A stretch of DNA of 64,000 nt from Zobellia roscoffensis (GCF_015330165.1 NZ_JADDXT010000002.1:1812663-1876662); one strand, 5' to 3'; positions 42,278 through 59,648 are shown, numbered from the stretch's first letter. Numbers and translations are program-made. Notes: generated from the sequence alone by a model not told the origin.

Positions 42278-43291
42278 ATGTCTTTACTCCAGATAATCCA
42301 TCGACTAAAAGAAGTAAATAGCTTGACCAAGCACGAACAATTGGTGCATGGTGTTATAGAAGCTTTGGATTCTGGGGAGCTTTTGGTTGGTGATAAATTA
42401 CCATCAATAAATAAAATGGTATCAGATATTGGCTATGCTAGAAAGACCATAGTTAAGGCTTATGAGGAGTTAAAAGAGAGAGGGCTGGTAGAGTCTAAAA
42501 AATTAAAAGGGTACTTTATTATAAGTGATGAGACTAAAGTGACGTTGAGGATAGCCTTGCTTTTATTTTCTTTTCAACGTTTCCAAGAAGACTTTTATAA
42601 CTCTTTCAGAAAAGAACTAGGAAATAAGTATCAGATAGATGTTTTTTTTCATCACAACAACATTTCGATTTTTGAGACCATTTTCAATAATATTCGAGGT
42701 AAATATGGAATGTATGTGGTAGCTCCAATTCCAGATAAGGTAATTAGGCCTCTTCTTTTGACGATCGAACCTCAAAAGTTACTGATAGTTGACCGGTATT
42801 TGCCAATGCCAGATGAGTATTCGTATATAGCTCAGGAATTTGAGGCAACCACATTTGATAAGTTAATAGAGTTGCTTCCAGAAATTAGAAAATATAAGAA
42901 GCTAGTTCTTTTTTATGCTGAAAATAGAGACTACCCACGTGGAATTTTATTGGCCTTCCATAGGTTCATTGCTGATTATGGTATAAATGGAGTTGTGTTA
43001 GAGGATTATGTTGAAGGTTCTCTTGAAAAAGAATCCATTTACTTTTTCATTAATGACGCTTCTCTTTGGGAATTACTTAAGGACTGCCATAATTCTAATT
43101 TGGAAGTGGGCGAAGATGTGGGGGTGCTATCTCATAATGACCACATAATTAAAGAAATTGCCTTTGGAGGTATTACTACAATCTCTACGGATTTTAAAGA
43201 TATGGCTACAATGGCTGCCCAACACATTAAAAATAACATGGTTTCTCAGACCATTGTTACTTCAAAACTGTTTAAGCGTAACTCTTTGTGA
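42278..43291 (+). CDS. GntR-family winged-HTH transcriptional regulator with a periplasmic-binding-protein-like sugar/effector domain. Likely regulator of the downstream SusCD locus.
   Basis: GntR-type wHTH (LPSINKMVSDIGYARKTIVKAYEELKERGLV). The C-terminal domain resembles LacI/PBP type I. Confidence 0.65.
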   Translation: MSLLQIIHRLKEVNSLTKHEQLVHGVIEALDSGELLVGDKLPSINKMVSDIGYARKTIVKAYEELKERGLVESKKLKGYFIISDETKVTLRIALLLFSFQRFQEDFYNSFRKELGNKYQIDVFFHHNNISIFETIFNNIRGKYGMYVVAPIPDKVIRPLLLTIEPQKLLIVDRYLPMPDEYSYIAQEFEATTFDKLIELLPEIRKYKKLVLFYAENRDYPRGILLAFHRFIADYGINGVVLEDYVEGSLEKESIYFFINDASLWELLKDCHNSNLEVGEDVGVLSHNDHIIKEIAFGGITTISTDFKDMATMAAQHIKNNMVSQTIVTSKLFKRNSL

Positions 43292-43432
43292 TATTAGCGT
43301 AATAGCTGAATTTGCTGTAAAATTCATCCTTATAAATTTTAGAATATCTATTTTTTAGCGCTTAAAATGATTAATTCTCATTTTTGGCAGCGAAAATTGT
43401 TTTTGGTATGGAAAAAATTCTTATTTTTGCTT

Positions 43433-43452
43433 TGTAGCATAGTGTAGCATAG
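43433..43452. repeat. Perfect tandem direct repeat TGTAGCATAG x2 in the regulator-SusC intergenic region.
   Basis: Read directly from the sequence: ...gctttGTAGCATAGTGTAGCATAGattc... Confidence 0.9.
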
Positions 43453-43558
43453 ATTCTTTTCGTGATGTTAAATATTTTGTTGTTCAATGCCTTTAAATTT
43501 TGTTTTTTTCAAAAAAAAGGGGGTAACTTGTATTATAATACCGTTAAAGTGCATTTAT

Positions 43559-43614
43559 GTAACGCTCGGCTTAATTTTGTTTTTAGTCTTTTTTAACGTT
43601 CTGATGAGCGTTAC
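43559..43614. promoter_or_regulatory. 9 bp perfect inverted repeat GTAACGCTC...GAGCGTTAC with a 38 bp spacer. It encloses a Bacteroidota -7-like box TAATTTTG (43572-43579). Candidate promoter and operator of the SusC operon.
   Basis: The inverted repeat arms (43559-43567 and 43606-43614) are read directly. TAnnTTTG is the Bacteroidetes sigma-A -7 consensus. No clean -33 TTG was seen. Confidence 0.35.
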
Positions 43615-43669
43615 GTGTGGTGAAAACAAAAATACTAACTCAATTTATTACTAACTTAAACTACTCATT

Positions 43670-46600
43670 ATGAACCAGAACTTTAAGAGATTAAATAGAG
43701 TTCGATCACATGGTTTTGTGCTCGCAGCTTTGTTTTTCTTCAGTGTTGCATCTTTGTGCGCACAAACCACAATTTCAGGTACTACTTCTGACGACCAGGG
43801 CGTATTGCCTGGCGTAAACGTATTGGTGAAAGGTACTACCGTTGGAAGCGTTTCGGATTTTGATGGAAATTACAGTATAGAGGTGCCGGAAGGCAGCTCT
43901 GCTTTGGTCTTCTCCTATGTGGGGTATTCCAAACAAGAAGTGGCTATAGATGGCCGCACAACAATTAATGTTACTTTGGCCGAAGATGCACAGGCACTTA
44001 GCGAAGTAGTTGTCGTTGGGTACGGTACCCAACGAAAAGCAGATTTAACAGGTGCTGTTGGATCTATTAGTTCTGCGGATATTGTTTCCAAACCTATTAC
44101 TAGCCCTGATCAAGCGTTGGCGGGTACTATTTCTGGGGTAAATATTACAAATCGTAGTGGTGATCCAGGTGCCCCTATTAGTGTGTTGATTAGAGGTGTA
44201 GGTACTGCGGGAAATACAGACCCATTATGGGTAATTGATGGTATTCCTATTGTACAGACAACCAATATAACTGTAAACACCTCTTCTACTACAGATTCTA
44301 ACCCATTAGCTGGTTTAAATGCTAATGATATTGAATCTATAGATGTTTTAAAGGATGCTGCCTCAACGGCAATTTATGGGTCTAGAGCTGCAAACGGTGT
44401 TATTATCGTTACGACCAAAAGAGGAAAGAGCGGAGACGCTAAGGTAACTTATAACGGTTATGTTTCAACTTCTACGGCTAGAGATAGAATAGATGTTCTA
44501 GATGTAGAGCAGTTTATTGATATTCAAGGTCAATTAGGTAGGGACCTTTCAGAGTTTTCTGGAAGCCCATATGTTGATTGGCAAGATTTAATTTTTCAAA
44601 CAGGATTCATTCAAAACCACAATGTAAGTGTTAGTGGTGGAAATGATAAGGCCAAATATTTTATTTCCGGAGGATTGTTAGATCAGGATGGTATTGAATT
44701 AGCTCAAGGTTTTAAAAGGTATTCTTTGAAAGCTAATTCAGAAATTAACGTTGGTAAATATTTAAAATTTGGTGAATCCATTCTTTTAAGTCAAACGGAT
44801 AGACAAGTGCAAAGTGAACAAGGTATTTATGCAGGTTTTAATTCTGCATTGAATGCACCATATTACCAGCCTTATGGTAATGGAGCTTTTGGTTATAATG
44901 ATTCTACTCCGGAAACTAGGGGTAACGGTATAACAGCGAACAACTACCTGTTTAATACCGATGATAGATACACAACCACAAATTTACAGACACGCAAAAT
45001 CTTAGCTAGTTTCTACGGGGAATTACAGATTTTAGACGGGTTAAGATTTAGACCTTCTTTAGGTATAGATTACAACGTGGGTGTTGGTGATTATTTTACA
45101 TCTGATGCCGTTCTGAATAATTCTACTGGGTCATCTCTTTTGGTTTCTTCCAGACCTATTGAATTAACGTTAACATCAGCTGCTACTTTGCAGTACGATA
45201 AGACTTTTGGCGATCATAATATAGGAGCATTGTTCGGTTTTGAGCAAACAAAATTTAGATTTGACAAGTTACGTGTACAAGGTAGAAGTTTATTTAATGA
45301 GAACTTTGCATCAACCGGAGAGGTTGGCACGGTAGGGGCGGCCAATGAGGCGGATTTATGGACCTTACAAGGATGGTTGGGTAGACTCACCTATAACTAT
45401 CAAGGAAAATATTTAGCTACATTTAATATTCGACGTGATGCAACTTCAAGATTTTCTCCTGATAACAGAACAGATGTGTTTCCTTCTGTATCTTTAGGTT
45501 GGAGAGTTTCAGATGAGGAATTTTTTCCAAAGGATGGAGCTTTTGATGATTTAAAGATTCGTGCAGGATGGGGTCAGTCTGGTAACCAGGCCTCGCCAAC
45601 GAATTTCCCATATTTAAGTGCTGTAGATAGTAATATAAGATATGTGATCGGTGATGATCAGGGGACAGTTACAGCTCCTGCACCTACCACTTTTGCCAAT
45701 CAAGATTTGTTTTGGGAAACGAGTACTCAATTTGATGTAGGTCTTGATTTTAGTTTATTCAATTACAAGTTGACCGGTAGCTTTGATTATTACAATAAAG
45801 TTAATGACGGCGTTCTTATCGGGTTACCATTACCATACGTTTCTGGCTTTTTCTTAGCTCCTGATGCTAATATCGGTTCTATTAAAAACTCTGGACTTGA
45901 ATTATCACTTAACTACGCAGGTGAAGCTGGGGATTTTACATATTCTATTGGTGGTAATTTCACAACAAACAATAATGAGGTTACTGATTTAGGAGAGGTT
46001 ACTCAAATCATAACAGGAATTGGAGGTGCAAGTACGCACAGAACTATAGAAGGTGAAAGCCTTGGCCATTTTTATGGCTATAAGACTGATGGTTTGTATC
46101 AAAATGATGCTGAGGTTGCGGCTGCCGTACCAGATGCTAACGGAACGCCTTCTCCTGGAGACATACGTTTTGTAGATGTAAATGGTGATGGTATTGTTGA
46201 CGCTGATGATAGAACTGAACTAGGAAGTCCTTTTCCTGGATTCTACTACGGTATGAATTTTAATGCAGCATATAAAGGGTTTGATTTCTCAATCAATTTT
46301 AGAGGGGTAGGAAACAAGCAAGTTTATAATTCTGCTAGAATAGCATTGGAAGATTTAAGTTCTGGTAACAACTTTAGTACGCAGGTTTTAGACCGGTGGA
46401 CGGGTGAAGGAACTGCTACTTCTAGTTCAAATCCAAGATTGACGTTGAACGATCCTAACGGGAACAACAGATATTCAGATAGATGGATTGAAGATGCAGG
46501 TTATTTAAGAATTCAGAATGCACAAATAGGCTATAACCTTCCTCAAGATTTATTAACTTCTTGGACAAACGATATGATTTCTAATTTTAGAATTTATGTT

Positions 46601-46768
46601 GGTGCTCAAAACTTAGCAACATTTACTAAGTATTCTGGTTATGATCCAGAAGTTGGTAGAACGCAGAGTTTTCAAAAGGGTGAGTTTACATTGGCTACAG
46701 GTCAAGATGGTGGAGCTTCACCAACACCTAGAATCTTTCAGTTAGGGTTATCCGTAACGTTCAATTAA
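43670..46768 (+). CDS. susC: SusC/RagA-type TonB-dependent outer-membrane transporter.
   Basis: Signal peptide, CarbopepD-like domain (ISGTTSDDQGVLPGVNVLVKGTTVGSVSDFDGNYSI), plug with the SusC-specific segment, a 1032 aa barrel and a C-terminal ...SVTFN. Confidence 0.95.
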   Translation: MNQNFKRLNRVRSHGFVLAALFFFSVASLCAQTTISGTTSDDQGVLPGVNVLVKGTTVGSVSDFDGNYSIEVPEGSSALVFSYVGYSKQEVAIDGRTTINVTLAEDAQALSEVVVVGYGTQRKADLTGAVGSISSADIVSKPITSPDQALAGTISGVNITNRSGDPGAPISVLIRGVGTAGNTDPLWVIDGIPIVQTTNITVNTSSTTDSNPLAGLNANDIESIDVLKDAASTAIYGSRAANGVIIVTTKRGKSGDAKVTYNGYVSTSTARDRIDVLDVEQFIDIQGQLGRDLSEFSGSPYVDWQDLIFQTGFIQNHNVSVSGGNDKAKYFISGGLLDQDGIELAQGFKRYSLKANSEINVGKYLKFGESILLSQTDRQVQSEQGIYAGFNSALNAPYYQPYGNGAFGYNDSTPETRGNGITANNYLFNTDDRYTTTNLQTRKILASFYGELQILDGLRFRPSLGIDYNVGVGDYFTSDAVLNNSTGSSLLVSSRPIELTLTSAATLQYDKTFGDHNIGALFGFEQTKFRFDKLRVQGRSLFNENFASTGEVGTVGAANEADLWTLQGWLGRLTYNYQGKYLATFNIRRDATSRFSPDNRTDVFPSVSLGWRVSDEEFFPKDGAFDDLKIRAGWGQSGNQASPTNFPYLSAVDSNIRYVIGDDQGTVTAPAPTTFANQDLFWETSTQFDVGLDFSLFNYKLTGSFDYYNKVNDGVLIGLPLPYVSGFFLAPDANIGSIKNSGLELSLNYAGEAGDFTYSIGGNFTTNNNEVTDLGEVTQIITGIGGASTHRTIEGESLGHFYGYKTDGLYQNDAEVAAAVPDANGTPSPGDIRFVDVNGDGIVDADDRTELGSPFPGFYYGMNFNAAYKGFDFSINFRGVGNKQVYNSARIALEDLSSGNNFSTQVLDRWTGEGTATSSSNPRLTLNDPNGNNRYSDRWIEDAGYLRIQNAQIGYNLPQDLLTSWTNDMISNFRIYVGAQNLATFTKYSGYDPEVGRTQSFQKGEFTLATGQDGGASPTPRIFQLGLSVTFN

Positions 46769-46790
46769 GTTTAAAAAATTATAAAATATT

Positions 46791-48317
46791 ATGAAAAAAA
46801 TAATTGTATTTTTTGCATGTGCATCACTGTTAGGAGTTCTCTCCTGTGGTGACCAGCTAGACCTTGAGCCTCTGGACCGTGTGACTACGGATCAGTTTTA
46901 CAAAACAAGAACGGATTTTGATGGAGCTGTTTTTGCTTCCTATTCATCTATCCAAGATTTTTGGGGAACTAGTACTGAGACGTTGGGTGAAAGAGGTGAG
47001 TTTTGGAAAATCTCCTTGGCAATAACCGATGATGTAGCAGCCGATGAAGTAAACGGAACTTCTTCTAGAGATATAGATAACCTCTTACTTCGTTCTAATG
47101 ATGTTCCTTTCGGAGCAGTTTACACTCAGATTTATGAAGGTATATATAGAGCAAATATTGTACTTGAAAATCTTGAAAAAGAGAATGAGTTAACTGCAGA
47201 AGATAAGACCATAATTAATGCCGAAGCTAAATTTTTAAGAGCTTGGTTTCATTTTCAGGCTATGAAGATGTTTGGTACGCCACCTTTAGCCCTAGATATT
47301 AGAACAGATATTAATGATCAGGCCAGACCAAATGCAACACAAGAAGAATTATATGCCGCAATATTGGCAGATTTGGCTGAAGCTGAGGCAGGTCTTCCTG
47401 CTGATTGGGATGGCTCTAATACAGGTAGAGTTACCTTATGGACTGCTAAAGCGTATATTGGTAAAGTAAATGTTTGGAAAGAAGATTGGCCAACAGCTAT
47501 TACGGCACTAGAAGAGGTTGTTAATTCGGGACCTTATGTTTTGGTTCCAGACTATGAGCAGTTATTTGCTTACACGAATGAGAATAATTCAGAATCTATT
47601 TTTGAAATCCAGTATGGTGGTCCGTTTTCTGATGATAACCTTTGGGTTTTTGATGATACACACTCAGAAGATTTTAAAGCTTCTCAAGGAACGGCGCGAG
47701 GAAATTATTGGGATGCAGGTGGTGATGCACCGGGCGGAAAACAAGGTCAGTGGGTTCCTACTCAAGATTTAGTGGATGCTTATGAGGCAGGTGATGAAAG
47801 ATTAGCGGTTACTGTATATCAAGATGGTGATATGTATTATTCTTTTGATGGAACGCGTTATGAAATTCCTTATGATCCTGCTTGGTCTTCGTCAGGGTAT
47901 ACTTTGAAGAAGTATAGAGGAACTTTAAATGCTGTAGTAGGTAACTCTTCTGCTAACGGACAAGTAGATTTTAACAATGAGCGTTGGTTTAGATTTGCAG
48001 AAGCTAAATTACTTTATGCGGAAGCTTTGATTCAAGGTGGAGGTGATGTTGGACTTGCTTTTGACGAAATAGATGATATTCGTGATAGAGCTGGTCTAGG
48101 TCTTGTTGACCGTTCGTTAGACCCTATGGACGCGTTAATGCAGGAAAAAAGAGTAGAGCTGGCCTTAGAACCACACAGGTACTTTGATATTACTAGATGG
48201 GGAATTGGAGCTGAGATTTTTGGAGCTGCTTGGGACGATAAATACAATGTATTTCCGTTTCCACTTACAGAAATTGATAGGTCTAAAGGTTTGCTAATCC
48301 AGAACTCAGGATATTAA
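46791..48317 (+). CDS. susD: SusD/RagB-family surface glycan-binding lipoprotein.
   Basis: Lipobox LSCGD. TPR-like SusD fold with WF..R/EL motifs. Immediately downstream of SusC. Confidence 0.9.
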   Translation: MKKIIVFFACASLLGVLSCGDQLDLEPLDRVTTDQFYKTRTDFDGAVFASYSSIQDFWGTSTETLGERGEFWKISLAITDDVAADEVNGTSSRDIDNLLLRSNDVPFGAVYTQIYEGIYRANIVLENLEKENELTAEDKTIINAEAKFLRAWFHFQAMKMFGTPPLALDIRTDINDQARPNATQEELYAAILADLAEAEAGLPADWDGSNTGRVTLWTAKAYIGKVNVWKEDWPTAITALEEVVNSGPYVLVPDYEQLFAYTNENNSESIFEIQYGGPFSDDNLWVFDDTHSEDFKASQGTARGNYWDAGGDAPGGKQGQWVPTQDLVDAYEAGDERLAVTVYQDGDMYYSFDGTRYEIPYDPAWSSSGYTLKKYRGTLNAVVGNSSANGQVDFNNERWFRFAEAKLLYAEALIQGGGDVGLAFDEIDDIRDRAGLGLVDRSLDPMDALMQEKRVELALEPHRYFDITRWGIGAEIFGAAWDDKYNVFPFPLTEIDRSKGLLIQNSGY

Positions 48318-48432
48318 TAATCTTCTTTTAGGGTTTCCCTAAAAAGTATAGTAATTTTACTGAAAGGAATCCAATTTTGAATAACCCCTAGATTGGATTC
48401 CTTTCTATTTATAGACGTTTTTAATTTCTTTC

Positions 48433-51400
48433 ATGTTCGCTACGTATAAAATCAGTTTGTTTTATTACTCGCTCTTCTCCTGCGTGGTATTATGTATTTT
48501 ATCATGCTCTAAGAATGAAAAAACACTTTTTAAAGAAATAACATCTTCTGAATCTGGTCTAACGTTTCAAAATAAACTAAACCTAACAGATACACTTACC
48601 ATACTAGATTTTGAGTATATGTACAATGGCGCTGGTGTTGCTGTGGCCGATTTTGATTTGGACGGCCTTCAGGATGTCTATTTTACGGGAAATATGGTGA
48701 GCAACCGCCTGTATCGTAACCAAGGTAATTTTAAGTTTGAAGATATTACTGAGTCGGCAAATGTGGGTTCTACGCATTGGTCTAATGGTGTGGCTATAGT
48801 TGATATTAATCAAGATGGTTTTCCTGATATTTATGTTTGTAGAGCAGGGCCAAGAAATGCAAAAAGTGAAAACAAAGCGAACCTATTGTTTGTAAATAAT
48901 GGTTTAAAGGATGGTAAGTTGTCTTTTACTGAAGAAGCTCAAAAATGGGGGTTGGCAGACACAAGTTATTCAGTGCAATCGGTTTTCTTTGATTATGATG
49001 GAGATGGCGATTTAGATATGTACCTTTTGAACAATGCATTGGTAGATTTTAATAGAAATACGGCAAAACCTAAAGAAGGTCGAGAAAAAGTTCCTTCTGT
49101 AGATAAACTCTTTAGAAATGACAGTGGCGAGAACGAAGCTGGGAATCCAGTTTTTACCGATGTTTCGGCCGAATCAGGTATTTCTATTGAAGGGTATGGT
49201 CTTGGTATTGAAGTATGTGATATGAATTCAGATGGTTGGCCAGATATCTATGTGTCCAATGATTTCCTTACGGATGATTTGCTCTATATCAATCAAAAAA
49301 ATGGTACGTTCAAAAATGAAATAGCCTCTTATTTTAAACATCTTACTTTTAATGGTATGGGCAATGATATTGCTGATATTAATAATGACGGGAATATGGA
49401 TGTTGTTGTTTTGGATATGCTTCCGCCAGACAATAAACGGTGGAAACTCACCATGATGGGCAATAATTATGATCAGTTTAGAAATAGACTAGATTACGGT
49501 TATCAACCTCAATATATTAGAAACACACTGCAGCTCAACAATGGCAATGGTTCTTTTAGTGAAGTGGGACAGCTTGCAGGAATTGATGCAACGGAATGGA
49601 GCTGGAGTGCCTTGTTTGCAGATTTTGACCAAGACGGACTTAATGATCTTTGCATTACTAATGGTTACCGACAAGATATTACCAATCTGGACTTTATGGT
49701 CTACGGGGATCGGGTATTAACCATGGGTACAGCAGAGGCCAATCGTAAAAAACGTATTGAAGAACTCAATAAACTACCGGGAATAAAAGAAAACAACTAC
49801 TTCTTCAAGAATACTGGTAACCTAACATTTGAAGATGCTTCTACAGAAGTAGGTTTTGATAAACCAACATACTCTAATGGCATGGCATACGCCGATTTGG
49901 ATAATGATGGCGATTTGGATTTGGTAATGAACAATATTGATGATCCCGCTGGTTTATTTGAAAACACACTTTCTTCAGAGGAAAACAGATACATTAGGTT
50001 CAAGTTTAAAGGTTCTGAAAAGAACAAACAAGCGTTAGGAAGCAAGGTCGAAATCTTCTATGGGGGTAGTGTACAAAAAAAATATTTCACGCCTTATCGT
50101 GGGTATTTATCTACGGTAGAACAAGCGTTGCATTTTGGAGTGGGCCAATCCAAAGAATTGGATAGCATAAAAGTCATATGGCCCGATGGGAAAACTCAGA
50201 ATCTTCAAGGCGTTGCTGTCAATCAGGAGTTGGTACTTCAGTATGAGAATGCTGTAGAAGGAAAACAAACCAAAAAAAGCGAAACACTTAAAACATGGCT
50301 TCAGCCAATAGATAGTATTGGTCTTAATCGGTTACACGTTGAGAATGAATTTGTAGATTTTAAGGTTCAGGCATTGTTGCCACATATGCATTCTAAAAAT
50401 GGACCGGGAATGGCGGTGGCAGATGTAAATGGCGATGGTTTGGAAGATTTATACGTTGGTGGGGCAACTGGTCAAGCCGGTGCAATACTACTTCAAAAAG
50501 TAGATGGTTCTTTTATAACTTCCGAATTTGAGGAAATGAAAAATGAAGACATGGGTGCGTTGTTTTTTGATGTCGACAATGATGGTGACCAAGATTTGTA
50601 TGTTGTAAGTGGTGGCTCTTCATATCAGGTGGGTGATAAGGCCTACCAAGATAGACTTTATGAAAATGATGGGTTGGGTAACTTTACTCAAACCAATGCA
50701 CTTCCAAATATGTTGGTCAGTGGTTCTGTGGTTACGGCGGCAGATTATGATAAAGATGGTGATTTAGACCTTTTTGTAGGTGGTAGAATAAGACCTGGTG
50801 AATACCCATTATCGCCGGAGAGTTTTCTCTTGAAAAATAACGGTACAGGAACCGGAATAAAGTTTGTAAAAGATGAACAGTCTGCCAATTTAGACCTTAC
50901 CAATTTGGGGATGGTAACTTCGGCCTTATGGACGGATTTTAATAATGATGGCTGGGAAGATTTAATTGTTGTTGGGGAATTTATGGCGGCTCGTTTCTTT
51001 CAGAATAATAAAGGAGAATTGTCCGATGTTACCGAAATAACAGGTCTTTCGCACACTAATGGTTGGTGGAATAGCATTACATCAGGTGATTTTGATAAGG
51101 ATGGAGATACAGATTATGTTTTAGGAAATCTTGGACTCAATAGTAAATTCAAGGCCAGTACAAAAGAACCTTTGTGCGTCTACGCTAGCGACTATGATAA
51201 GAACGGCCAAATAGACCCGGTTATGTGTCATTATGTAGATGGAGAAAACTATGTGGCACACTCACGTAATGATTTAATTAGTCAGGTCAATGCTATGCGC
51301 TCACGCTTCAGGACTTTTTCTGATTATGCAGATGCTACTTTTGAGGAGTCTTTTTTAAAGGAAGAAATAGAGCAAGCGCACGTGGTACGAAGTGAAACTT

Positions 51401-51969
51401 TTGCTAATTCGTATCTTGAGAATTTGGGAAATGGAAAATTCAGGCTTTCAGAATTGCCAAGAGCTGCCCAAATTGCGCCTATGTATGGCATGATGGTTGG
51501 CGATTATAATAATGATCAAAATTTAGATGTTTTGGCAGTTGGTAATTTCTACAGTGGGGAAGTGTTTTCAGGCAGGTATGATGCCGCTATAGGATGGTTG
51601 TTGCTTGGTGATGGTATAGGAGGTTTTAGTAAAGCCGATGTCTCTCAAAGCGGATTTTTCGTAGATGGGGATGCAAAAAGCCTAGTTAGCTTAAATGCTG
51701 GTGATAGAGAATTACTTATAGCGGGAATGAATAATGCCGGTTTAAAAAGCTTTTATCGACCTATAAAAAATAGAATTTATAAACCGAAGCCCAATGAGGT
51801 ATCAGCTTTGGTCACTTTTGATAATGGAACGAAACAAAAAGTAGAATTCCATTATGGGGCGGGTTATCTTTCAAGCTCAAGCCGAAATTTTAATGTTCCA
51901 GATTCTGCAGTTTCCCTAAAGGTTATAGATGTAAATGGTGTTGAAACTGAAATCTTGAAAAAACCATGA
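48433..51969 (+). CDS. Lipoprotein with two FG-GAP-type (integrin alpha-like) 7-bladed beta-propellers plus ASPIC/UnbV domains (CRTAC1 family).
   Basis: Lipobox ILSCS. Fourteen Ca-binding DxDxDGxxD loops (for example DFDLDGLQD, DINQDGFPD, DYDGDGDLD, DLDNDGDLD, DVNGDGLED, DYDKDGDLD). UnbV_ASPIC-like segments lie after each propeller. Confidence 0.8.
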   Translation: MFATYKISLFYYSLFSCVVLCILSCSKNEKTLFKEITSSESGLTFQNKLNLTDTLTILDFEYMYNGAGVAVADFDLDGLQDVYFTGNMVSNRLYRNQGNFKFEDITESANVGSTHWSNGVAIVDINQDGFPDIYVCRAGPRNAKSENKANLLFVNNGLKDGKLSFTEEAQKWGLADTSYSVQSVFFDYDGDGDLDMYLLNNALVDFNRNTAKPKEGREKVPSVDKLFRNDSGENEAGNPVFTDVSAESGISIEGYGLGIEVCDMNSDGWPDIYVSNDFLTDDLLYINQKNGTFKNEIASYFKHLTFNGMGNDIADINNDGNMDVVVLDMLPPDNKRWKLTMMGNNYDQFRNRLDYGYQPQYIRNTLQLNNGNGSFSEVGQLAGIDATEWSWSALFADFDQDGLNDLCITNGYRQDITNLDFMVYGDRVLTMGTAEANRKKRIEELNKLPGIKENNYFFKNTGNLTFEDASTEVGFDKPTYSNGMAYADLDNDGDLDLVMNNIDDPAGLFENTLSSEENRYIRFKFKGSEKNKQALGSKVEIFYGGSVQKKYFTPYRGYLSTVEQALHFGVGQSKELDSIKVIWPDGKTQNLQGVAVNQELVLQYENAVEGKQTKKSETLKTWLQPIDSIGLNRLHVENEFVDFKVQALLPHMHSKNGPGMAVADVNGDGLEDLYVGGATGQAGAILLQKVDGSFITSEFEEMKNEDMGALFFDVDNDGDQDLYVVSGGSSYQVGDKAYQDRLYENDGLGNFTQTNALPNMLVSGSVVTAADYDKDGDLDLFVGGRIRPGEYPLSPESFLLKNNGTGTGIKFVKDEQSANLDLTNLGMVTSALWTDFNNDGWEDLIVVGEFMAARFFQNNKGELSDVTEITGLSHTNGWWNSITSGDFDKDGDTDYVLGNLGLNSKFKASTKEPLCVYASDYDKNGQIDPVMCHYVDGENYVAHSRNDLISQVNAMRSRFRTFSDYADATFEESFLKEEIEQAHVVRSETFANSYLENLGNGKFRLSELPRAAQIAPMYGMMVGDYNNDQNLDVLAVGNFYSGEVFSGRYDAAIGWLLLGDGIGGFSKADVSQSGFFVDGDAKSLVSLNAGDRELLIAGMNNAGLKSFYRPIKNRIYKPKPNEVSALVTFDNGTKQKVEFHYGAGYLSSSSRNFNVPDSAVSLKVIDVNGVETEILKKP

Positions 51970-54900
51970 AAATGTTGAAACCTTTAATATTTGTGTTGGG
52001 TCTCACATTTCTATTTGTGGGTTGTGGTGAGAAAGAAACGCATCGTTTCAGGTTGCTTGATGCGTCAAAAACGGGCATCGATTTTCAAAATACGATTACG
52101 GAAAACGATAGCATTAATGTTTTTGAATTCATGAATGTGTATACCGGTGCTGGTGTTGCGGTAGGAGATATTGATAATGATGGCCTCACGGATGTGTATT
52201 TTAGCGGGAACATGGTTTCAGGTAGGTTGTATCGGAATAAAGGAAATTTTCAGTTTGAGGATATTACTGAAAAATCAGGACTGCTCAATACCCGTTGGGG
52301 AACAGGGGTAAGTATGGTAGATATTAACCAAGATGGATTTTTAGATATTTATGTGTGCGTTTCAGGAAGTGCAGAGGTTTCCGAGCGAGCCAATATGCTT
52401 TATATTAATAACGGTGATATGACCTTTACCGAAATGGCCGAGGAGTATGGTCTTGCGGATACGCGGCAAAGCATGCATGCTGCTTTTATGGATTACGATA
52501 AGGATGGCGATTTGGATATGTATCTTTTGGTAAACCCTGCGGCATACGAATACAATGTAAATGTGAGCAAACCACGTGAAGTAGAAGGGCAATCTGTCAG
52601 TAATGACCGCTTATATGAAAACATGGGTAACGGTAAGTTTCAGGATATTTCCGATAAAGCAGGAATTGTACTGGAGGGCTATGGACTTGGTGTAGGCATC
52701 TCAGACATTAATGGTGATAACTGGCCGGATATTTATGTATCCAATGATTTTATTGGGAATGATATTCTCTATATCAACCAAAAAGATGGCACGTTCAAAG
52801 ACCAGATTACAGAGCAAATAAAGCATACCTCATATGCGGGAATGGGTAACGATGTTGCAGATGTGGATAATAATGGTGAGCCCGATATTATGGTATTGGA
52901 TATGCGCCCAGAAGATAATGAACGTCAAAAATTGATTATTTCCTCAACGGGTTATGACCGTTTTCAAATTATGTTAGATGCAGGTTACAATGCACAATAC
53001 AGTCGCAATACGCTGCAGTTAAACCAAGGCCGGGATAAGTTTAGTGAAGTAGGTTTTATGGCAGGCATTAGTAGTACGGATTGGAGTTGGAGCCCGTTAT
53101 TAGCAGATTATGATAATGATGGCCGTAAAGATTTATACGTTACCAATGGTTTTTTAAGGGATTTGGGAGATTTAGATTATATCCATTATCAGAAGGCCTA
53201 TGATAATCCCGTAGGTGATGTGGATACAAAAATCCAAATGAAATTGAAATCCATAAGTGAACTGCCCATGGCAGATTTACCAAACTACGCCTATCGTAAT
53301 AAAGGGGATATGACTTTTGAAAAAGTTTCCGATAGTTGGGGGATTGATAAAGCCAGTTGTTCCCATGGTGCGGCATATGCCGATCTGGATAATGATGGGG
53401 ATTTGGATTTACTGGTGAACAATATGGATCAACCTGCTTTTGTATATGAAAACGTGGGCCTTCCAGAGAAAAAAAATCACTATTTAAAAATTAAGCTGAA
53501 AGGTGAAAAAGGCAATCTTCAAGGGATAGGAGCAAAATTGAAGCTGACAACCACAGATTCGGAACAATTTTACCAACATTATTTGAGTCGGGGATATGAG
53601 TCTAGCGTAGATCCTACAGTACATTTTGGTTTGGGTAAATCCAAAGAGATAGAGAGTATTGAGGTTTGGTGGCCAAACGGTACATATCAGATTTTGAATA
53701 ATCAGGCAGTAGATACGGTCTTGGTGTTGCAACAGTCAAATGCAACCAAAGATATTCCACAGAAAAAAGAATTTAAAAAACAATTTTTCTCTGATGTAAC
53801 GGATAGTTTAGGTGTAAGCTTTAAGCATCAAGAAGACGACTTCGTAGATTTTAAACTACAGCCTATTTTACCGCACATGCATTCACGAAACGGACCAGGT
53901 TTAGCTGTTTCGGATGTAAATGGAGATGGCTTGGAAGATTTTTATATTGGCGGAGCAATTGGTCAACCAGGAGAATTACTTTTACAAAAAACTGACGGAA
54001 GTTTTGTTTCAAAGGAAGGTTTTGATGCCGATTTTGAGGACCTGGGTGTCCTATTGTTTGATGCTAATGGTGATGGGTATAATGACCTCTATGTGGTTAG
54101 TGGTGGTGTAAGTGCAAGTGTTGATGCTGGAAAATTTCAAGATAGGCTATACGTGAATGATGGTAAAGGTGGTTTTATGTTGTCTGATGCTTTGCCTGCC
54201 ATTAGTGCAAGTGGATCGTGCGTAGTTGCTAATGATTATGACAAAGATGGAGACCTGGATTTGTTTGTAGGGGGTAGGGTTAATCCTGGTAAATATCCAA
54301 TGCCTGCACAAAGTTATTTGCTCGAAAACCAATCATCCGGTAGTGATTTCAAGTTCGTTGATGCGAGCAATACAATAGAAGGTTGGAAAGAATTGACTAT
54401 GGTTACTTCTGCTTTATGGACAGATTATGATAATGATGGGTGGACAGACCTTATTGCGGTAGGTGAATTTATGCCTATCAGTATTTTTCATAACGAAAAA
54501 GGAAAGCTTGTTCTGCAAAAGGAAGGCACTGGATTAACAAAAACTGAAGGTTGGTGGAACAGCATTAACGGAGGAGATTTTGACCAAGATGGCGATGTAG
54601 ATTATATTCTTGGTAACCTTGGTCTTAACAGTAAGTACACTGTTACTGCAGATGAGCCACTTTGTATCTATGCTAAGGATTATGATAAAGACGGTCGGGT
54701 AGACCCTATAATGTGTTATTTTATTAATGGTGAAAACCATTTAGCGCATTCGCGTGATGAGATTATTGGTCAGGTTAATGCCATGCGGAGCAGATTTAAA
54801 ACCTATAAATCATATGCCGAAACTAATTTTGAAAAATCATTTTTGCAGGAAGAATTGAAAGACGCTTATGTGGTAAAGAGTTATACTTTCTCAAGTAGTT

Positions 54901-55475
54901 ATGTAGAAAATCAAGGGAATGGAAAATTTAAACTCCATGAGCTTCCATTGGAATTGCAAACAGCACCTATTCAGGGTGTGGTGGTCAGTGATTTTAATGA
55001 AGATGGAAATCTAGATGTGCTCATGACGGGTAACTCGTATGCTACAGAAGCGGCAACAGGACGTTATGATGCATTTGTTGGGGCTTTCTTAAAAGGAAAC
55101 GGTAAAGGTTCTTTTGAAAATATTTCTATAGCTGAAAGCGGGTTTTTAAGTGATTGGGATGCGAGTGGTTTGGCTTTGATTCATATGGGTGACGGAAGAC
55201 AAAATATATTGGCGGCAAATAATGATAATCAACTAAAAATATTTCAGCAGACAGAACTCGGAAATGGAAAGGTGATTAATGTAGGGGCAAATGCACTTTC
55301 GGCTGTTATTAAATTAAAGAACGGGCAGAAATACAAGAAGGAGTTTTACTTTGGTTCGGGATATTTATCTCAAAGTAGCAGAAGTATTGGCTTAAATAAG
55401 AATATTAGAGAGATTGAGGTTATAGATAAAAATGGAAATACAAAAACAGTGTATTTAGATGAAGCAGTTAAGTAG
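51966..55475 (+). CDS. Paralogous FG-GAP / ASPIC-UnbV (CRTAC1 family) lipoprotein. Tandem duplicate of the preceding gene.
   Basis: Lipobox LFVGCG. Same domain order and DxDxDG loops, collinear with 48433..51969 along the whole length. Its start ATGA overlaps the upstream stop. Confidence 0.8.
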   Translation: MKMLKPLIFVLGLTFLFVGCGEKETHRFRLLDASKTGIDFQNTITENDSINVFEFMNVYTGAGVAVGDIDNDGLTDVYFSGNMVSGRLYRNKGNFQFEDITEKSGLLNTRWGTGVSMVDINQDGFLDIYVCVSGSAEVSERANMLYINNGDMTFTEMAEEYGLADTRQSMHAAFMDYDKDGDLDMYLLVNPAAYEYNVNVSKPREVEGQSVSNDRLYENMGNGKFQDISDKAGIVLEGYGLGVGISDINGDNWPDIYVSNDFIGNDILYINQKDGTFKDQITEQIKHTSYAGMGNDVADVDNNGEPDIMVLDMRPEDNERQKLIISSTGYDRFQIMLDAGYNAQYSRNTLQLNQGRDKFSEVGFMAGISSTDWSWSPLLADYDNDGRKDLYVTNGFLRDLGDLDYIHYQKAYDNPVGDVDTKIQMKLKSISELPMADLPNYAYRNKGDMTFEKVSDSWGIDKASCSHGAAYADLDNDGDLDLLVNNMDQPAFVYENVGLPEKKNHYLKIKLKGEKGNLQGIGAKLKLTTTDSEQFYQHYLSRGYESSVDPTVHFGLGKSKEIESIEVWWPNGTYQILNNQAVDTVLVLQQSNATKDIPQKKEFKKQFFSDVTDSLGVSFKHQEDDFVDFKLQPILPHMHSRNGPGLAVSDVNGDGLEDFYIGGAIGQPGELLLQKTDGSFVSKEGFDADFEDLGVLLFDANGDGYNDLYVVSGGVSASVDAGKFQDRLYVNDGKGGFMLSDALPAISASGSCVVANDYDKDGDLDLFVGGRVNPGKYPMPAQSYLLENQSSGSDFKFVDASNTIEGWKELTMVTSALWTDYDNDGWTDLIAVGEFMPISIFHNEKGKLVLQKEGTGLTKTEGWWNSINGGDFDQDGDVDYILGNLGLNSKYTVTADEPLCIYAKDYDKDGRVDPIMCYFINGENHLAHSRDEIIGQVNAMRSRFKTYKSYAETNFEKSFLQEELKDAYVVKSYTFSSSYVENQGNGKFKLHELPLELQTAPIQGVVVSDFNEDGNLDVLMTGNSYATEAATGRYDAFVGAFLKGNGKGSFENISIAESGFLSDWDASGLALIHMGDGRQNILAANNDNQLKIFQQTELGNGKVINVGANALSAVIKLKNGQKYKKEFYFGSGYLSQSSRSIGLNKNIREIEVIDKNGNTKTVYLDEAVK

Positions 55476-56781
55476 TATACTCATATTATGTTTGGTTTTA
55501 TTGGTGTCCTGTGGCACCAAGCACAATCAAGAAGGGCTAGATGCTTATTTTGAAGGAGGTTTATCAAACTATAATCGTCAGCTTACAAATGTTATAGTTG
55601 CTGATATTTTTACCCCGCCAGTAGCAAGTAGAATTTATGCGTATTCCAACGTGGCCGCCTATGAGGGTATTCGTTTTGCAGATGCATCAAAGGAGTCTTT
55701 AGTGTCTAAGTTGAATGATTTAGATAAATTATCAGAACCGGAAGCTGGTAAAAAATATTATTACCCATTGGTTTCTGCGGTGGCTTTCATGAATGTGGGT
55801 AAAGCCTTGGTGTTTGATTTGGATAAAGTGGAAGCTATTAAGAGTAGTATGTTGACCGAAGTTAAGGATATCGGTATTGACGAAGCAGTTTACCAAAATT
55901 CAGTATCCTTTGGAGAAAAATTGGCAACTGAAATCTTGAGTTGGGCAGCAAAAGATGGATACTTGCGCCGTACTGCGCTTCCTAGATATTCGGTAAGTGA
56001 TGATGCGGGTCGTTGGAGGCCAACCCCTCCAGATTATATGGAGGCCATAGAGCCACATTGGAACACCATTAGACCCTTTGTTTTAGAATCTGCTGGACAA
56101 TTTGATCCTGGACTTCCTACTGCTTTTAATATTGAAAAAGATTCTAAGTTTTATGAGGAAGCTGTTGAGGTGTATGAAACCGTAAATAAATTAGATGATA
56201 AGCAATTGGAGGTCGCCAAGTTTTGGGACTGTAATCCTAATATATCTCATACCAAGGGGCATGTCATGTATTTTCAGCAGCAAATATCACCCGGAGGACA
56301 TTGGATGCACATTGCAGCACAAGTATTGGAAGAAGAAAAAGCTGATGGCGTAACAGCTGCTGAAACCATGTCTTTGTTAGGAGTGACAATTGCAGATGCA
56401 TTTATCAGTTGTTGGGATCAGAAGTATAAGAGTAGTTTAACCAGGCCAGAAACGTATATCAATAATTACATAGACCAAGATTGGGAGCCTATTCTTCAAA
56501 CACCGGCTTTTCCTGAGCATACATCAGGACACAGTGTGGCTTCTAGTGCCGCAGCAACGGCCTTAACGGAGTTGTTTGGTGAGAACTATGCTTTTGTGGA
56601 TGCAACCGAAGTTCCATACGGTCTTCCTCCAAGAAGTTTTCAGTCGTTTTGGCAAGCTGCAGAAGAAGCAGCTATTAGTCGCTTATATGGAGGAATACAC
56701 TATAGACCTGCTATTGAACTTGGCGTTGCGCAGGGAAAGGCAGTAGGAGGGTTTGTTATAAAACGCCTTAAGTCTGACTAA
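55459..56781 (+). CDS. PAP2-superfamily lipoprotein of the vanadium-dependent haloperoxidase / acid-phosphatase type.
   Basis: Lipobox LLVSCG. All three PAP2 motifs are present: K-x6-RP (KYKSSLTRP), PSGH-like (PEHTSGHS) and SR-x5-H-x3-D-like (SRLYGGIHYRPAIE). Overlaps the upstream gene by 17 nt. Confidence 0.7.
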   Translation: MKQLSSILILCLVLLVSCGTKHNQEGLDAYFEGGLSNYNRQLTNVIVADIFTPPVASRIYAYSNVAAYEGIRFADASKESLVSKLNDLDKLSEPEAGKKYYYPLVSAVAFMNVGKALVFDLDKVEAIKSSMLTEVKDIGIDEAVYQNSVSFGEKLATEILSWAAKDGYLRRTALPRYSVSDDAGRWRPTPPDYMEAIEPHWNTIRPFVLESAGQFDPGLPTAFNIEKDSKFYEEAVEVYETVNKLDDKQLEVAKFWDCNPNISHTKGHVMYFQQQISPGGHWMHIAAQVLEEEKADGVTAAETMSLLGVTIADAFISCWDQKYKSSLTRPETYINNYIDQDWEPILQTPAFPEHTSGHSVASSAAATALTELFGENYAFVDATEVPYGLPPRSFQSFWQAAEEAAISRLYGGIHYRPAIELGVAQGKAVGGFVIKRLKSD

Positions 56782-57262
56782 GGGTTCAAGCTAAAAGTTA
56801 TTGAGCGAAAGGATATGTTTTTGAGTCTAAGTATATTTTGGATAGTTGGCTGTCTTTTTAGATGAAGTATGTAGAAGGTTTACTAAAAATGAAAGATATT
56901 TCTTATGTTTTTATTAAATAATGGGTATATTTCGATGTGTTTTTGTCGAAAGAATATTTTTCTCTTAAATAAGATTCTAAGTAGGTTTTTAAAAAACGAA
57001 TATTTCTATTCATTTGAAATAATGGTTGGTCTGTAAATCAGAGTTTTAGATAATGATAGCGATAAGTTTTTTTGGAGACCTTTAGAATACACTGTATATT
57101 TGAATAGTAGCATAGAATATCATAGTATAATAAAAAACAATTATATCTTGTTTTCCTATCATGAATGGAAGAAGGTTTTAGTTTTAAAGAATACTTTATT
57201 GCTCAATAGAAAATGATAATACCATCAGTTGTTAATTAATTTCCTCCCAATAAAAAAATCAG

Positions 57263-59032
57263 ATGATTGTAAACACTACCCTAACAGCAACCTCCGACAT
57301 AACGATTATCGGTGCAGAGCAAAATTTCCAAACGTCACTTAAAAAAGTACATGATCATGAAGGTACAGTGGTCTATGATTTTGAAGTAGCAGGAGATGAG
57401 AAACAGATACCGAAACCTATAACGCTACAATGGAAGGTTCCTGCGATTAATGTAAAGGGAGTTTGGAAGCCTACAACAGATTTTAACAAACGTATTCAGG
57501 CAGATTGGGAGTTAGATAATATGGAATCTAGAATTTCTATTGATTCTCCTGTGATTTCCCTTTTTGGTAATAGTGATGAGAATATTTTAACTTTTGCTTG
57601 TTCCAATGCCATTAATAAATTAGAAATGAATGCGCGTTTGCGTGAGGAGGACAATTGTTTTTATTGCTATATCACTTTTTTTATGGAACAACATTACCCT
57701 CTTAAAAATTTCAAAGCACAGATAAGACTTGATCATCAAAATCAGCATTTTTCTGATAGTCTCCGTGCCGTATCTTCTTGGTGGGAAACTTTTGAGCAGT
57801 TAAAACCAGCTTATGTTCCGGATATCGCTAAAAAACCATTGTATTCTACCTGGTATCAATTTCATCAAAACTTAGAAATACCACTACTTTTAGAGGAATG
57901 TAGATTGGCCAAGGATTTAGGTTACGAGGCAATTATTATTGATGACGGTTGGCAGACATTTGACTCTAATAGAGGGTATGATTTTACTGGAGATTGGCAG
58001 CCGGACCGTATTCCTGAAATGGCGGAATTCGTAAAAAGTGTGCATGAAACAGGAATGAAAGTAGCCCTTTGGTATTCCGTTCCGTTTTGTGGTGAAAAAT
58101 CAAAAGCTTTCAAACGTTTTAAAGGGAAATTCTTGACGGAAGACCATAGATGGGCACCAGTTTTTGATCCGCGCTACCCAGATGTACGACAATATTTAAT
58201 CGATATTTATTCAAGTGCTGCTAAAGACTGGAATCTAGATGGCTTTAAACTCGATTTTATAGACGATTTTAGATTTTATAAAGACACACCTACGAAATTA
58301 GGAGCAGATGCGGATTACGCTTCTATTAACGGTGCGGTTGACCGTTTGTTAACAGACGTAAAAAATGCTTTAACAGAAATAAACCCCGAAATCTTTATTG
58401 AGTTCAGACAAAAATATACTGGACCGGCAATGCGTAAGTATGGCAATATGTTCCGGGCTTTTGATTGCCCGGGAGATGCCACTATGAACCGTTTGCGAAT
58501 TGCAGATATACGTATGCTTGCGGGTAACACAGCAGTGCATTCTGATATGGTTACCTGGCATGAAGATGAACCTTTGGAAATTGCAGCACTTCAGGTAATC
58601 AACACGCTTTTTGGGGTTCCTCAACTGTCAATTATGTTGAGTGAAACTCCTAAAGAGTATGTAAATATGATTGGGTTTTATACTAAATATTGGAATGAAA
58701 ATGCCGATGTTCTTATGAACGGTGATTTTCTTCCTTCTAAACCTCTTGCCAACTATCCCACGAAGCGAGTTTCTAAAAATGGGCAAGTCATTATTGGAGT
58801 ATATGATACTTGGATTATTGAACTTAACGAAGCACATAATTTAGTCGATATCTTAAATGCACAGATAGCGAATCAGGTTGTTATCAGAAATACGAAAGAC
58901 TTAGGAGCGTATCGTTGTAAAATTTATGATTGCCAAGGAAGTTTGATACGGGAAGATAATGTAGTATTTTCGAAAGGCGTACTTGAAATTGAGGTTCCCG
59001 CTTGTGGAATCATCAAAGCCGAGAAAATATAA
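57263..59032 (+). CDS. Cytoplasmic glycoside hydrolase, GH36-like (clan GH-D alpha-galactosidase family).
   Basis: IIIDDGWQ....GDW...IPEMAEFVKSVHETGMKVALWYSVP closely tracks the GH36 catalytic-domain consensus (DDGWF...GDW...vH..GMKFGLW). Candidate nucleophile in FKLDFID (the KWD equivalent). No signal peptide. Confidence 0.6.
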   Translation: MIVNTTLTATSDITIIGAEQNFQTSLKKVHDHEGTVVYDFEVAGDEKQIPKPITLQWKVPAINVKGVWKPTTDFNKRIQADWELDNMESRISIDSPVISLFGNSDENILTFACSNAINKLEMNARLREEDNCFYCYITFFMEQHYPLKNFKAQIRLDHQNQHFSDSLRAVSSWWETFEQLKPAYVPDIAKKPLYSTWYQFHQNLEIPLLLEECRLAKDLGYEAIIIDDGWQTFDSNRGYDFTGDWQPDRIPEMAEFVKSVHETGMKVALWYSVPFCGEKSKAFKRFKGKFLTEDHRWAPVFDPRYPDVRQYLIDIYSSAAKDWNLDGFKLDFIDDFRFYKDTPTKLGADADYASINGAVDRLLTDVKNALTEINPEIFIEFRQKYTGPAMRKYGNMFRAFDCPGDATMNRLRIADIRMLAGNTAVHSDMVTWHEDEPLEIAALQVINTLFGVPQLSIMLSETPKEYVNMIGFYTKYWNENADVLMNGDFLPSKPLANYPTKRVSKNGQVIIGVYDTWIIELNEAHNLVDILNAQIANQVVIRNTKDLGAYRCKIYDCQGSLIREDNVVFSKGVLEIEVPACGIIKAEKI

Positions 59033-59042
59033 CGAACTTCAA

Positions 59043-59603
59043 ATGACCGAAAAAGAGAAAATGATTGGTGGAAAACCTTATAACCCTCATGATAAGGAGT
59101 TGGTTAGAGGTAGGTTGAACGCAAGAAGACTAATGCGTGAAATTGAAGCCATACCCATGGATAAGGAACGGCAACGTAAACATTTTTTCAAAGAGTTATT
59201 TGCTGAGACCGGTAAAAATTTTTACATAGAGAATCGTTTTACTTGCGATTATGGCTTCAATATTTATTGGGGGGAAAACTCATACGCTAATTTTGATTGT
59301 ATTATTTTGGATGCAGCGCCAGTTTACATTGGTAAGAATGTTATGATAGCTCCTGCGGTAAAACTTCTTACGGCAACGCATCCTCTTGAATTTGAAGCAC
59401 GCAATTCCGGCATTGAATACGCAAAACCTATAAGAATAGGTGATAACGTTTGGATTGGCGGCGGGGTAATCGTTAATCCAGGGGTTACAATAGGAAATAA
59501 CAGTGTTATAGGTTCTGGTAGTGTTGTGGTAAAAGACATTCCTGAAAATGTAGTAGCTGTTGGTAATCCGTGTCGCGTACTAAAGAAAATTGATAACTCA
59601 TAA
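59043..59603 (+). CDS. maa: Maltose/galactoside O-acetyltransferase (Maa/LacA family, left-handed beta-helix).
   Basis: ORF 58983..59603. The ATG at 59043 gives MTEKEKMIGGKPYNP, the Maa N-terminus. Hexapeptide repeats (IGDNVWIGGGVIVNPGVTIGNNSVIGSGSVV). Confidence 0.85.
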   Translation: MTEKEKMIGGKPYNPHDKELVRGRLNARRLMREIEAIPMDKERQRKHFFKELFAETGKNFYIENRFTCDYGFNIYWGENSYANFDCIILDAAPVYIGKNVMIAPAVKLLTATHPLEFEARNSGIEYAKPIRIGDNVWIGGGVIVNPGVTIGNNSVIGSGSVVVKDIPENVVAVGNPCRVLKKIDNS

Positions 59604-59648
59604 TTATAGCTCTTCACTCTCTCAACACCAACTTAAAACACTAAAAAT

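Follow-up and report, generated by a model that had tools for sequence, protein, structure and literature searches.

A conserved head-to-tail repeat at the start of a susC transcript in Zobellia roscoffensis as the predicted operator of an adjacent GntR-type regulator

Introduction

The promoter region of a susC gene in Zobellia roscoffensis carries a tandem direct repeat that, judging by its conservation and surroundings in related genomes, is probably the operator of the adjacent GntR-type regulator, which would act as a repressor released by a sugar. The repeat consists of TGTAGCATAG twice, back to back (43433-43442 and 43443-43452, plus strand), and is predicted to cover approximately +1 to +19 of the transcript. 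It lies in a 64 kb stretch of DNA, which we refer to as the window and from whose first nucleotide positions are counted. A sequence-only reading of this region had proposed a composite operator in which the tandem repeat acts together with an inverted repeat bracketing a -7 box further downstream. The first part of this proposal stands, as the tandem repeat is conserved and behaves like a cis-element linked to the regulator, while the inverted repeat and the box that it encloses are not conserved. In this paper, we describe the repeat and its promoter, the distribution of the motif across genera, the regulator and its target operons, and the mechanism that these features suggest, together with the explanations that compete with it.

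The tandem repeat and the susC promoter

Both copies of TGTAGCATAG are present at 43433-43452 as the earlier reading had reported, and its placing of the end of the regulator gene about 140 bp upstream is likewise accurate: the open reading frame (ORF) extends to 43291, 141 nt short of the repeat, and the ATG of susC follows at 43670. The core of the repeat is TAGCATAG-TG-TAGCATAG (43435-43452), so that two 8-bp TAGCATAG half-sites are placed 10 bp, or one helical turn, apart. According to both a repeat finder and the sequence logo of the motif family, this 18-bp repeat is arranged head to tail and is devoid of dyad symmetry. Its occurrence is far above the chance level. Specifically, when the 378-nt intergenic region was shuffled 5000 times with its dinucleotides preserved, 0.1% of the shuffles contained a perfect tandem 10-mer, and the 64 kb of the window contain no tandem 10-mer other than the TGTAGCATAG pair. 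When the window was scanned with a position weight matrix (PWM) built from other loci, exactly two sites were returned, one of 37.2 bits (57106-57129) and one of 25.4 bits at the repeat itself (43433-43456); the next best non-site scored -1.1 bits.

The repeat is preceded by a -7 box of the sigma-A type, TATTTTTG (43422-43429, plus strand), which conforms to TAnnTTTG and is a conserved promoter element. All 61 non-redundant sites of the family have such a box 5-7 nt before the motif, exact at 53 of them and near-consensus at 8. The gap between the G of the box and the first T of the motif amounts, for the exact boxes, to 5 nt (40 sites), 6 nt (10) or 7 nt (3), and the remaining 8 boxes, each one base off, are all at the 5-nt spacing. 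The logo, built from 63 non-redundant sites, is circular in its core, as the sites were chosen by the search pattern, and the flanks, counts and positions constitute the independent evidence. Outside the pattern and in motif numbering, the logo has G at -1 (54/63 sites), A at -2 (46/63), T-A-n-n-T-T-T-G at -13 to -6 and a T-rich TTTT(G/A) at -36 to -32.

For Flavobacterium psychrophilum, dRNA-seq places the sigma-A box TAnnTTTG at -12 to -5 relative to mapped start sites (PMC9723704), and so +1 is predicted to fall on the conserved G at 43434 (plus strand), the base found at -1 of the logo, with the repeat at about +1/+2 to +19. We infer a start at approximately 43434 by this analogy; TATTTTTG would then stand about 5 nt before it, as in a sigma-A promoter. 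A possible -33 element, TTTG at 43402-43405 (plus strand), is suggested by the sequence and the family logo and is uncertain: this nearest TTTG lies 16 nt from the -7 box, compared with about 18 nt in the family logo, and it varies among Zobellia. In Bacteroidota, the sigma-A -33 TTTG is expected about 19-21 nt upstream of the -7 box. A sigma-70-type promoter scan, which does not model Bacteroidota promoters, gave hits no commoner than in shuffles, and a terminator scan revealed no terminator-like site.

Conservation of the motif in Zobellia and other genera

We aligned the spacer between the regulator gene and susC in the window with the corresponding spacers of five other Zobellia species. 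The six spacers have a mean column identity of 80% and contain long variable stretches. Despite this divergence, the arrangement TTATTTTTG-n4/5-TAGCATAG-n-GTAGCATAG is invariant in all six species; TTATTTTTG contains the TAnnTTTG box at 43422-43429, and TAGCATAG-n-GTAGCATAG comes directly after it. Other invariant or near-invariant blocks of the spacer are CAAAAAAAAG..GGTAAnTTG, CGTTAAAGT, GTCTTTCTTAAC and the 40 nt before the ATG.

The comparison was extended across genera with a set of 80 loci encoding orthologues of the regulator, from which 81 sequences were scanned for TAGCATAG-nn-TA[G/T]CATAG with at most two mismatches (the core is also written with a leading (G)). The pattern was found in 70 of the 81 sequences, a co-occurrence with the regulator that is partly built in, the loci having been sampled through the regulator gene. 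These sequences gave 80 matches, against approximately 0.4 expected from base composition over about 1.5 Mb on both strands. Phylogenetic footprinting of the tandem repeat, both within Zobellia and across genera, was thus strongly positive. The motif-bearing genera include Maribacter, Ulvibacterium, Spongiimicrobium, Croceitalea, Dokdonia, Cellulophaga and Muriicola, in addition to a metagenome-assembled genome labelled Cyclobacteriaceae. In the family, the usual form is TAGCATAG-nn-TATCATAG, and the repeat of Zobellia is perfect because of a G in its second unit.

The motif sits between the regulator and SusC genes and is always directed at the regulated gene, being on the plus strand when susC is downstream of the regulator and on the minus strand when susC is divergent. 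The 11 of the 81 loci that lack it are exactly those without a susC or GH589 neighbour (GH589, an alpha-galactosidase-like glycoside hydrolase, is described below), and in these 11 loci nothing better than 3-4 mismatches was found within about 4 kb. Therefore, the element belongs to the target promoters and not to the regulator gene, and the same search, within about 4 kb in the 11 loci, found no autoregulatory site near the regulator gene.

Where extra copies of the motif are present (loci L044 and L046), they come in 10-bp steps, in keeping with binding along a single face of the DNA. Several further features of the units were observed. The three-unit promoters, with TAGCATAG-nn-TATCATAG-nn-TATCATAG at 10-bp spacing, are located at 5124-5151 in L044 and at 3663-3690 (minus strand) in L046. 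At 11 of the 61 sites, the sequence runs on with CATA, giving an overlapping third TAGCATA at an offset of 5 bp, and the number of operator units differs between genomes. A half-site-like CTATGCTA was also seen inside the coding sequence of the regulator (42433-42442, minus strand), at codons ~52-54 in the helix-turn-helix region. It is exact in several orthologues (position 4156 in L052, L060 and L064) and one base off in the window. It lacks both a partner unit and a -7 box, and coding constraint is its probable explanation.

A scan of metagenome contigs with the exact pattern was free of regulator-based sampling and returned at least 127 sites in at least 120 loci. Most of the matches listed are chance or microsatellite-like occurrences without promoter context; among the matches listed, 13 sites in 12 loci follow a -7 box, one of these boxes being one base off consensus. 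The regulator is encoded on the same fragment in nine of these 12 loci, and in the other three the contig either breaks off or bears different operons of the regulon (susC, GH589). So, among the matches listed, the motif in promoter context belongs to this regulon, a result drawn from 12 loci in a scan swamped by chance matches. In one metagenome contig (OFEO01068970.1, 1132 nt; L105), the exact 18-nt pattern is repeated five times within 1.1 kb, flanked by GGATAGCA-like sequence and outside any promoter context. This is an unrelated tandem satellite that contains the motif by accident, and it calls for caution in pattern-only searches.

The regulator protein

The regulator gene (42278-43291, plus strand) encodes a protein of 337 aa with an N-terminal GntR winged helix-turn-helix and a C-terminal LacI/GalR-type sugar-binding domain. 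Its assignment to the GntR family, made in the sequence-only reading, was borne out by a match of residues 20-81 to PF00392 (38.3 bits against a cut-off of 27, E 1.1e-9). The match to Peripla_BP_3 is weak and above threshold (29.3 bits, cut-off 26.5). Sequence matches in the PDB comprise GntR/YtrA-type heads and AraR-NTD. An AlphaFold (AF2) model derived from 21 orthologues reached a pLDDT of 74.6, with the linker residues 85-104 below 50, and in Foldseek its residues ~90-337 matched LacI-family effector domains with a probability of 1.0, an E of about 3e-9 and a TM score to the target of 0.6-0.69. As modelled, the regulator is a GntR head on a LacI-type sugar sensor, a predicted architecture like that of AraR. 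The regulator has orthologues of 57-93% identity in Zobellia, Maribacter, Cellulophaga, Ulvibacterium, Spongiimicrobium, Croceitalea, Dokdonia, Muriicola and further Flavobacteriaceae. NCBIfam provides no specific name for the regulator, nor for the FG-GAP proteins or the hydrolase of the operons described below.

Target operons and the putative regulon

The operon downstream of the tandem repeat (43670-56781, plus strand) was delineated from ORFs and Pfam domains. It begins with susC (43670-46768, 1032 aa) and susD (46791-48317), followed by genes for two FG-GAP/ASPIC-UnbV proteins (48433-51969 and 51966-55475) and for a PAP2-superfamily protein (55459-56781), all on the plus strand. The two FG-GAP/ASPIC-UnbV proteins are paralogous and of about 1170 aa each; the PAP2 protein has 440 aa and a C-terminal PAP2 domain, and the start of its gene overlaps the end of the preceding one. 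Among the genes of this polysaccharide utilization locus (PUL) at 48433-56781, Pfam recognised no glycoside hydrolase and NCBIfam names none.

The second PWM site of the window precedes another operon. This predicted operator, TAGCATAG-AA-TATCATAG (57108-57125, plus strand), is a perfect match to the family consensus and has the top PWM score; it follows a second -7 box, TATATTTG (57095-57102, plus strand), with a TTTG at 57071-57074, 20 nt upstream, and would thus mark a second regulated promoter. The operon, as judged from ORFs, Pfam and NCBIfam, extends over 57263-61298 on the plus strand. It encodes the glycoside hydrolase GH589 (57263-59032, 589 aa), a TIM-barrel protein distantly related to the alpha-galactosidases of GH36, GH31 and GH27, as well as two proteins recognised by domain searches, a Mac/hexapeptide acetyltransferase (58983-59603) and a Na+/solute symporter (59649-61298).

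A coherent picture of targets was obtained from all loci taken together: the 88 ORFs downstream of the motif encode SusC (76), orthologues of GH589 (8) or galactokinase (GalK; 4). GH589 orthologues follow the motif in 7 other loci, and the motif-linked SusC proteins include paralogues of only 30-40% identity, which shows that the motif is independent of the identity of the target. The combination of SusC, hydrolase and galactokinase points to a regulon for the use of galactose or alpha-galactosides, and the effector is, from this gene content, probably galactose or an alpha-galactoside.

In Zobellia laminariae AS94 (locus L002, 5398-5544 and downstream), the orthologous susC looks interrupted: tblastn recovers residues 1-49, after which a 523-aa ORF restarts at about residue 51, and the promoter and operator are intact. 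The interruption may stem from a frameshift, from pseudogene formation or from an assembly error.

The inverted repeat and other elements of the leader

The inverted repeat is composed of GTAACGCTC (43559-43567) and its reverse complement GAGCGTTAC (43606-43614), separated by 38 nt. It was proposed to be part of the operator, with the enclosed TAATTTTG (43572-43579) as the -7 box of the promoter. The strings are present as described, and TAATTTTG does match TAnnTTTG. However, a perfect 9-bp inverted repeat with a loop of 3-60 nt occurs in 34% of shuffles and 51 times in the window; therefore, this one is no more than expected by chance. Nor is there an excess of GTAACGCTC elsewhere in the window (7 found, 6.3 expected). 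Neither the arms nor TAATTTTG are conserved in the five other Zobellia species, in which the position of the first arm reads GCGATAGTA, GTAATGGTA, GCTGAAATA, GTGCTACTA and GTGATAATA and that of TAATTTTG reads CAATAGTG, CAATATTG, CAACAGCT, TAATGATG and TAATGGTG, and they are not present in other genera. On conservation, the criterion for refutation set in the sequence-only reading itself, the inverted repeat does not hold up as a part of the operator, and the role of -7 box passes from TAATTTTG to the conserved TATTTTTG at 43422-43429.

With a start predicted at about 43434, upstream of the inverted repeat, the latter would be part of the 5' leader. The stem of 9 bp and loop of 38 nt that had been envisaged for it are absent from both the minimum-free-energy and the centroid folds of the leader. 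Instead, GAGCGTTA (43606-43613) pairs with the adjoining TAACGTTC (43595-43602), and the z-score of the whole leader is -1.44. The inverted repeat and the enclosed TAATTTTG are incidental and stand outside the system. In view of these chance frequencies, the lack of conservation and the predicted fold, we consider it very improbable that the regulator binds the tandem repeat together with both arms, looping or bracketing a promoter at TAATTTTG, or that the arms form a stem of the leader.

The local hairpin TAACGTTC-TGAT-GAGCGTTA (43595-43614, plus strand), which belongs to the minimum-free-energy fold and uses the 3' arm of the inverted repeat, is of uncertain status. It follows a conserved GTCTTTnTTAAC and has 8 bp and a 4-nt loop here, and 5-10 bp in other Zobellia. 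A hairpin is formed at this position in six of six Zobellia species with differing sequences (z-scores from -0.01 to -4.0), which is only suggestive of conservation by position. There is no U-run after the hairpin, so it is not a terminator.

Additionally, the leader contains blocks that are conserved in sequence. The block before the ATG, TACTAACTCAA...TACTAACTTAAACTACTCATT (43633-43669, plus strand), is near-invariant in Zobellia and corresponds to the translation-initiation region of susC. Its AACTAAC...TAAAC, located 20-30 nt ahead of the ATG of susC, is shared by 36 of 56 non-redundant susC leaders (for example, in L012, L034, L037 and L045), including those of 30-40% identical paralogues and of other genera, and the AACTAAC block is duplicated in the window (TACTAACTCAA / TACTAACTTAA). 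It may serve translation initiation or be targeted by an sRNA in susC mRNAs, of which the window encodes one. Another conserved block is CAAAAAAAAGGGGGTAACTTG (43509-43531); AAAAAG-n4-TAAnTTG is invariant in the six Zobellia and in three Ulvibacterium leaders that are otherwise unalignable. Within it, TAACTTGT (43524-43531) fits TAnnTTGY, the 'SM5' promoter box reported for F. psychrophilum (PMC9723704), and may act as an internal promoter, beyond the operator, for basal expression of susC. An Rfam scan of 43200-43800 with E up to 10 returned noise only (best E 0.92, far below gathering scores). Taken with the terminator scan, the leader z-score and a covariation term of +0.09 for the consensus fold discussed below, this gives no indication of a structured RNA or terminator at the leader.

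Proposed mechanism and alternative explanations

The features described above suggest the following mechanism. The two TAGCATAG half-sites would begin at the predicted start, 5 nt after TATTTTTG, and the two winged-helix heads of a regulator dimer would occupy the same face of the DNA over approximately +1 to +19. The bound regulator would keep RNA polymerase from opening the susC promoter or from escaping the open complex there, and the site at 57108-57125 would work alike on the operon of the alpha-galactosidase-like enzyme, acetyltransferase and symporter. A sugar bound by the LacI-type domain would then release the repressor and turn both operons on; from the gene content, the inducing sugar would be galactose or a breakdown product of alpha-galactosides. 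The half-site geometry requires comment. As a rule, LacI-type effector domains dimerise with two-fold symmetry and read palindromes, and AraR is no exception. A head-to-tail repeat is therefore unexpected for a GntR-LacI architecture and, according to the model of the protein, would need flexible linkers (residues 85-104, with a pLDDT below 50) or a different oligomer.

One alternative is that the conserved 18-22 nt act as RNA, forming the 5' end of the susC and GH mRNAs (GUAGCAUAGnnUAUCAUAG) and serving as a site for an sRNA or an RNA-binding protein or as a stability element, with the regulator acting elsewhere. The near-fixed distance to the -7 box, by which every transcript would begin with the motif, and its constant presence in the transcribed orientation fit a 5'-RNA element equally well. 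In RNAalifold, four or five of the six leaders from Zobellia could also pair a downstream TATGC/TTTATG segment with the repeats (five of them through the central G-C, A-U and U-A pairs). That consensus, however, is weak (-6.9 kcal/mol, with hardly any covariation) and its pairs are broken in the sequence of the window itself, for which reason this pairing was rejected; short leaders, of 26-35 nt, that occur in other genera are without a complementary partner, and no Rfam family matches. Moreover, the 10-bp phasing and the addition of units at 10-bp steps are properties of DNA binding, and a DNA-binding regulator co-occurs with the motif. The motif is conserved while its flanks diverge, and it precedes a coherent set of genes, as is typical of the operator of a transcription factor. 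The phasing, the co-occurrence with a DNA-binding regulator and the weakness of the predicted RNA pairing together favour a DNA operator, and an element acting solely as RNA appears unlikely, although the same 18 nt might additionally be a 5'-RNA tag on every regulated transcript.

It is similarly unlikely that the motif is bound by another protein, for instance an activator or a global carbon regulator, or that the adjacent regulator activates through it. The pairing of regulator and motif is itself deduced from genomic context, the direct repeat is atypical for a LacI-type dimer and the lack of an autoregulatory site near the regulator gene in our search would also suit this view. Against it, the motif follows the regulator gene across genera and in two gene arrangements, and its targets are limited to a coherent galactose-related set. 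In bacterial promoters, an operator at +1 to +19 is in the position of a repressor and not of an activator, and the predicted location of the repeat is precisely this one. Repression by the adjacent regulator through the tandem repeat thus remains the explanation that we regard as probable.

Comparison with known regulators

Among characterised systems, the closest is AusR, a GntR repressor of the FadR subfamily that controls the alginate PUL of Zobellia galactanivorans and was published as the first model of PUL regulation in marine Flavobacteriaceae (Dudek et al. 2020, PMC7641319). The regulator described here belongs to the same superfamily in the same genus and is likewise encoded beside a SusC/D locus. 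AusR has one to three operator copies at or next to a TAnnTTTG -7 box, unites dispersed operons in one regulon and is released by a degradation product of its substrate (PMC7641319); here, too, the repeat is box-proximal, two operons carry it and release by a sugar is proposed. The two systems differ in the effector domain, which is all-helical and FadR-type in AusR and LacI-type here, and in the operators. Those of AusR are palindromic, TKGT-N2-3-ACMA, and overlap the -7 box (PMC7641319), whereas the present one comes shortly after the box and consists of head-to-tail units of 10 bp, and TAGCATAG has no GT...AC dyad.

In domain architecture, the counterpart is AraR of Bacillus subtilis (PDB 4EGY/4EGZ/4H0E), which also joins a GntR head to a LacI/GalR-like sugar-binding domain. 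AraR is a sugar-responsive repressor of a glycan/monosaccharide regulon with operators at several operon promoters, and a similar set-up is proposed here. In contrast, sequence similarity to AraR is marginal (E 0.0019) and confined to the head. AraR reads palindromic operators, in pairs that loop the DNA. The element described here is a tandem direct repeat, and a distant auxiliary site is not in evidence. As far as sequence can tell, the regulator is thus AraR-like in architecture and is not filed as an AraR orthologue, lacking both a palindromic site and clear relatedness in sequence.

Direct repeats as such are read by several GntR proteins, namely FarR/MngR (TGTATTAWTT), NanR (TGGTATAW), NagQ (TGGTATT) and the MocR-type GabR/PdxR (Suvorova et al. 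2015, PMC4494728). These resemble the present case in having GntR heads on tandem half-sites, and the unit of FarR is also 10 bp (PMC4494728). They differ in their effector domains, which are of the FadR, HutC or aminotransferase type, and in the sequences of their half-sites; none is from Bacteroidota or linked to SusC/D. In literature searches of incomplete coverage on the motif string, Zobellia GntR operators and UnbV/SusD/GntR, we did not find this motif and regulator described. In kind, the system is an ordinary repressor-operator pair. What is unusual is the geometry of the half-sites and the functional clue that it offers to a widespread locus.

Biological significance

A broader reading, which we put forward only tentatively, is that of a Flavobacteriaceae-wide regulon of which our literature searches, of incomplete coverage, returned no description, comprising SusC/D with FG-GAP/ASPIC proteins, the alpha-galactosidase-like hydrolase with its symporter, and galactokinase, under a GntR-LacI hybrid repressor that would read a head-to-tail 10-bp repeat at the transcription start. 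If this is true, a LacI-type dimer would have to set its two GntR heads in tandem, asymmetrically, and not across a dyad. We know of no such tandem-head geometry of DNA recognition for the GntR-LacI architecture, and how a LacI-type dimer could read tandem half-sites is a structural question that the motif raises.

The regulation of PULs in marine Flavobacteriaceae has been characterised experimentally for very few systems. The present result provides a precise predicted operator of 18 bp, at two promoters in the window and at about 90 sites elsewhere, and it names a candidate regulator and a candidate class of effector, galactose or alpha-galactosides. The locus encoding SusC/D and FG-GAP/ASPIC-UnbV proteins is widespread, and we found no substrate assigned to it. 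By tying this locus to an alpha-galactosidase-like enzyme and to galactokinase, the shared predicted operator gives a first clue to its function.
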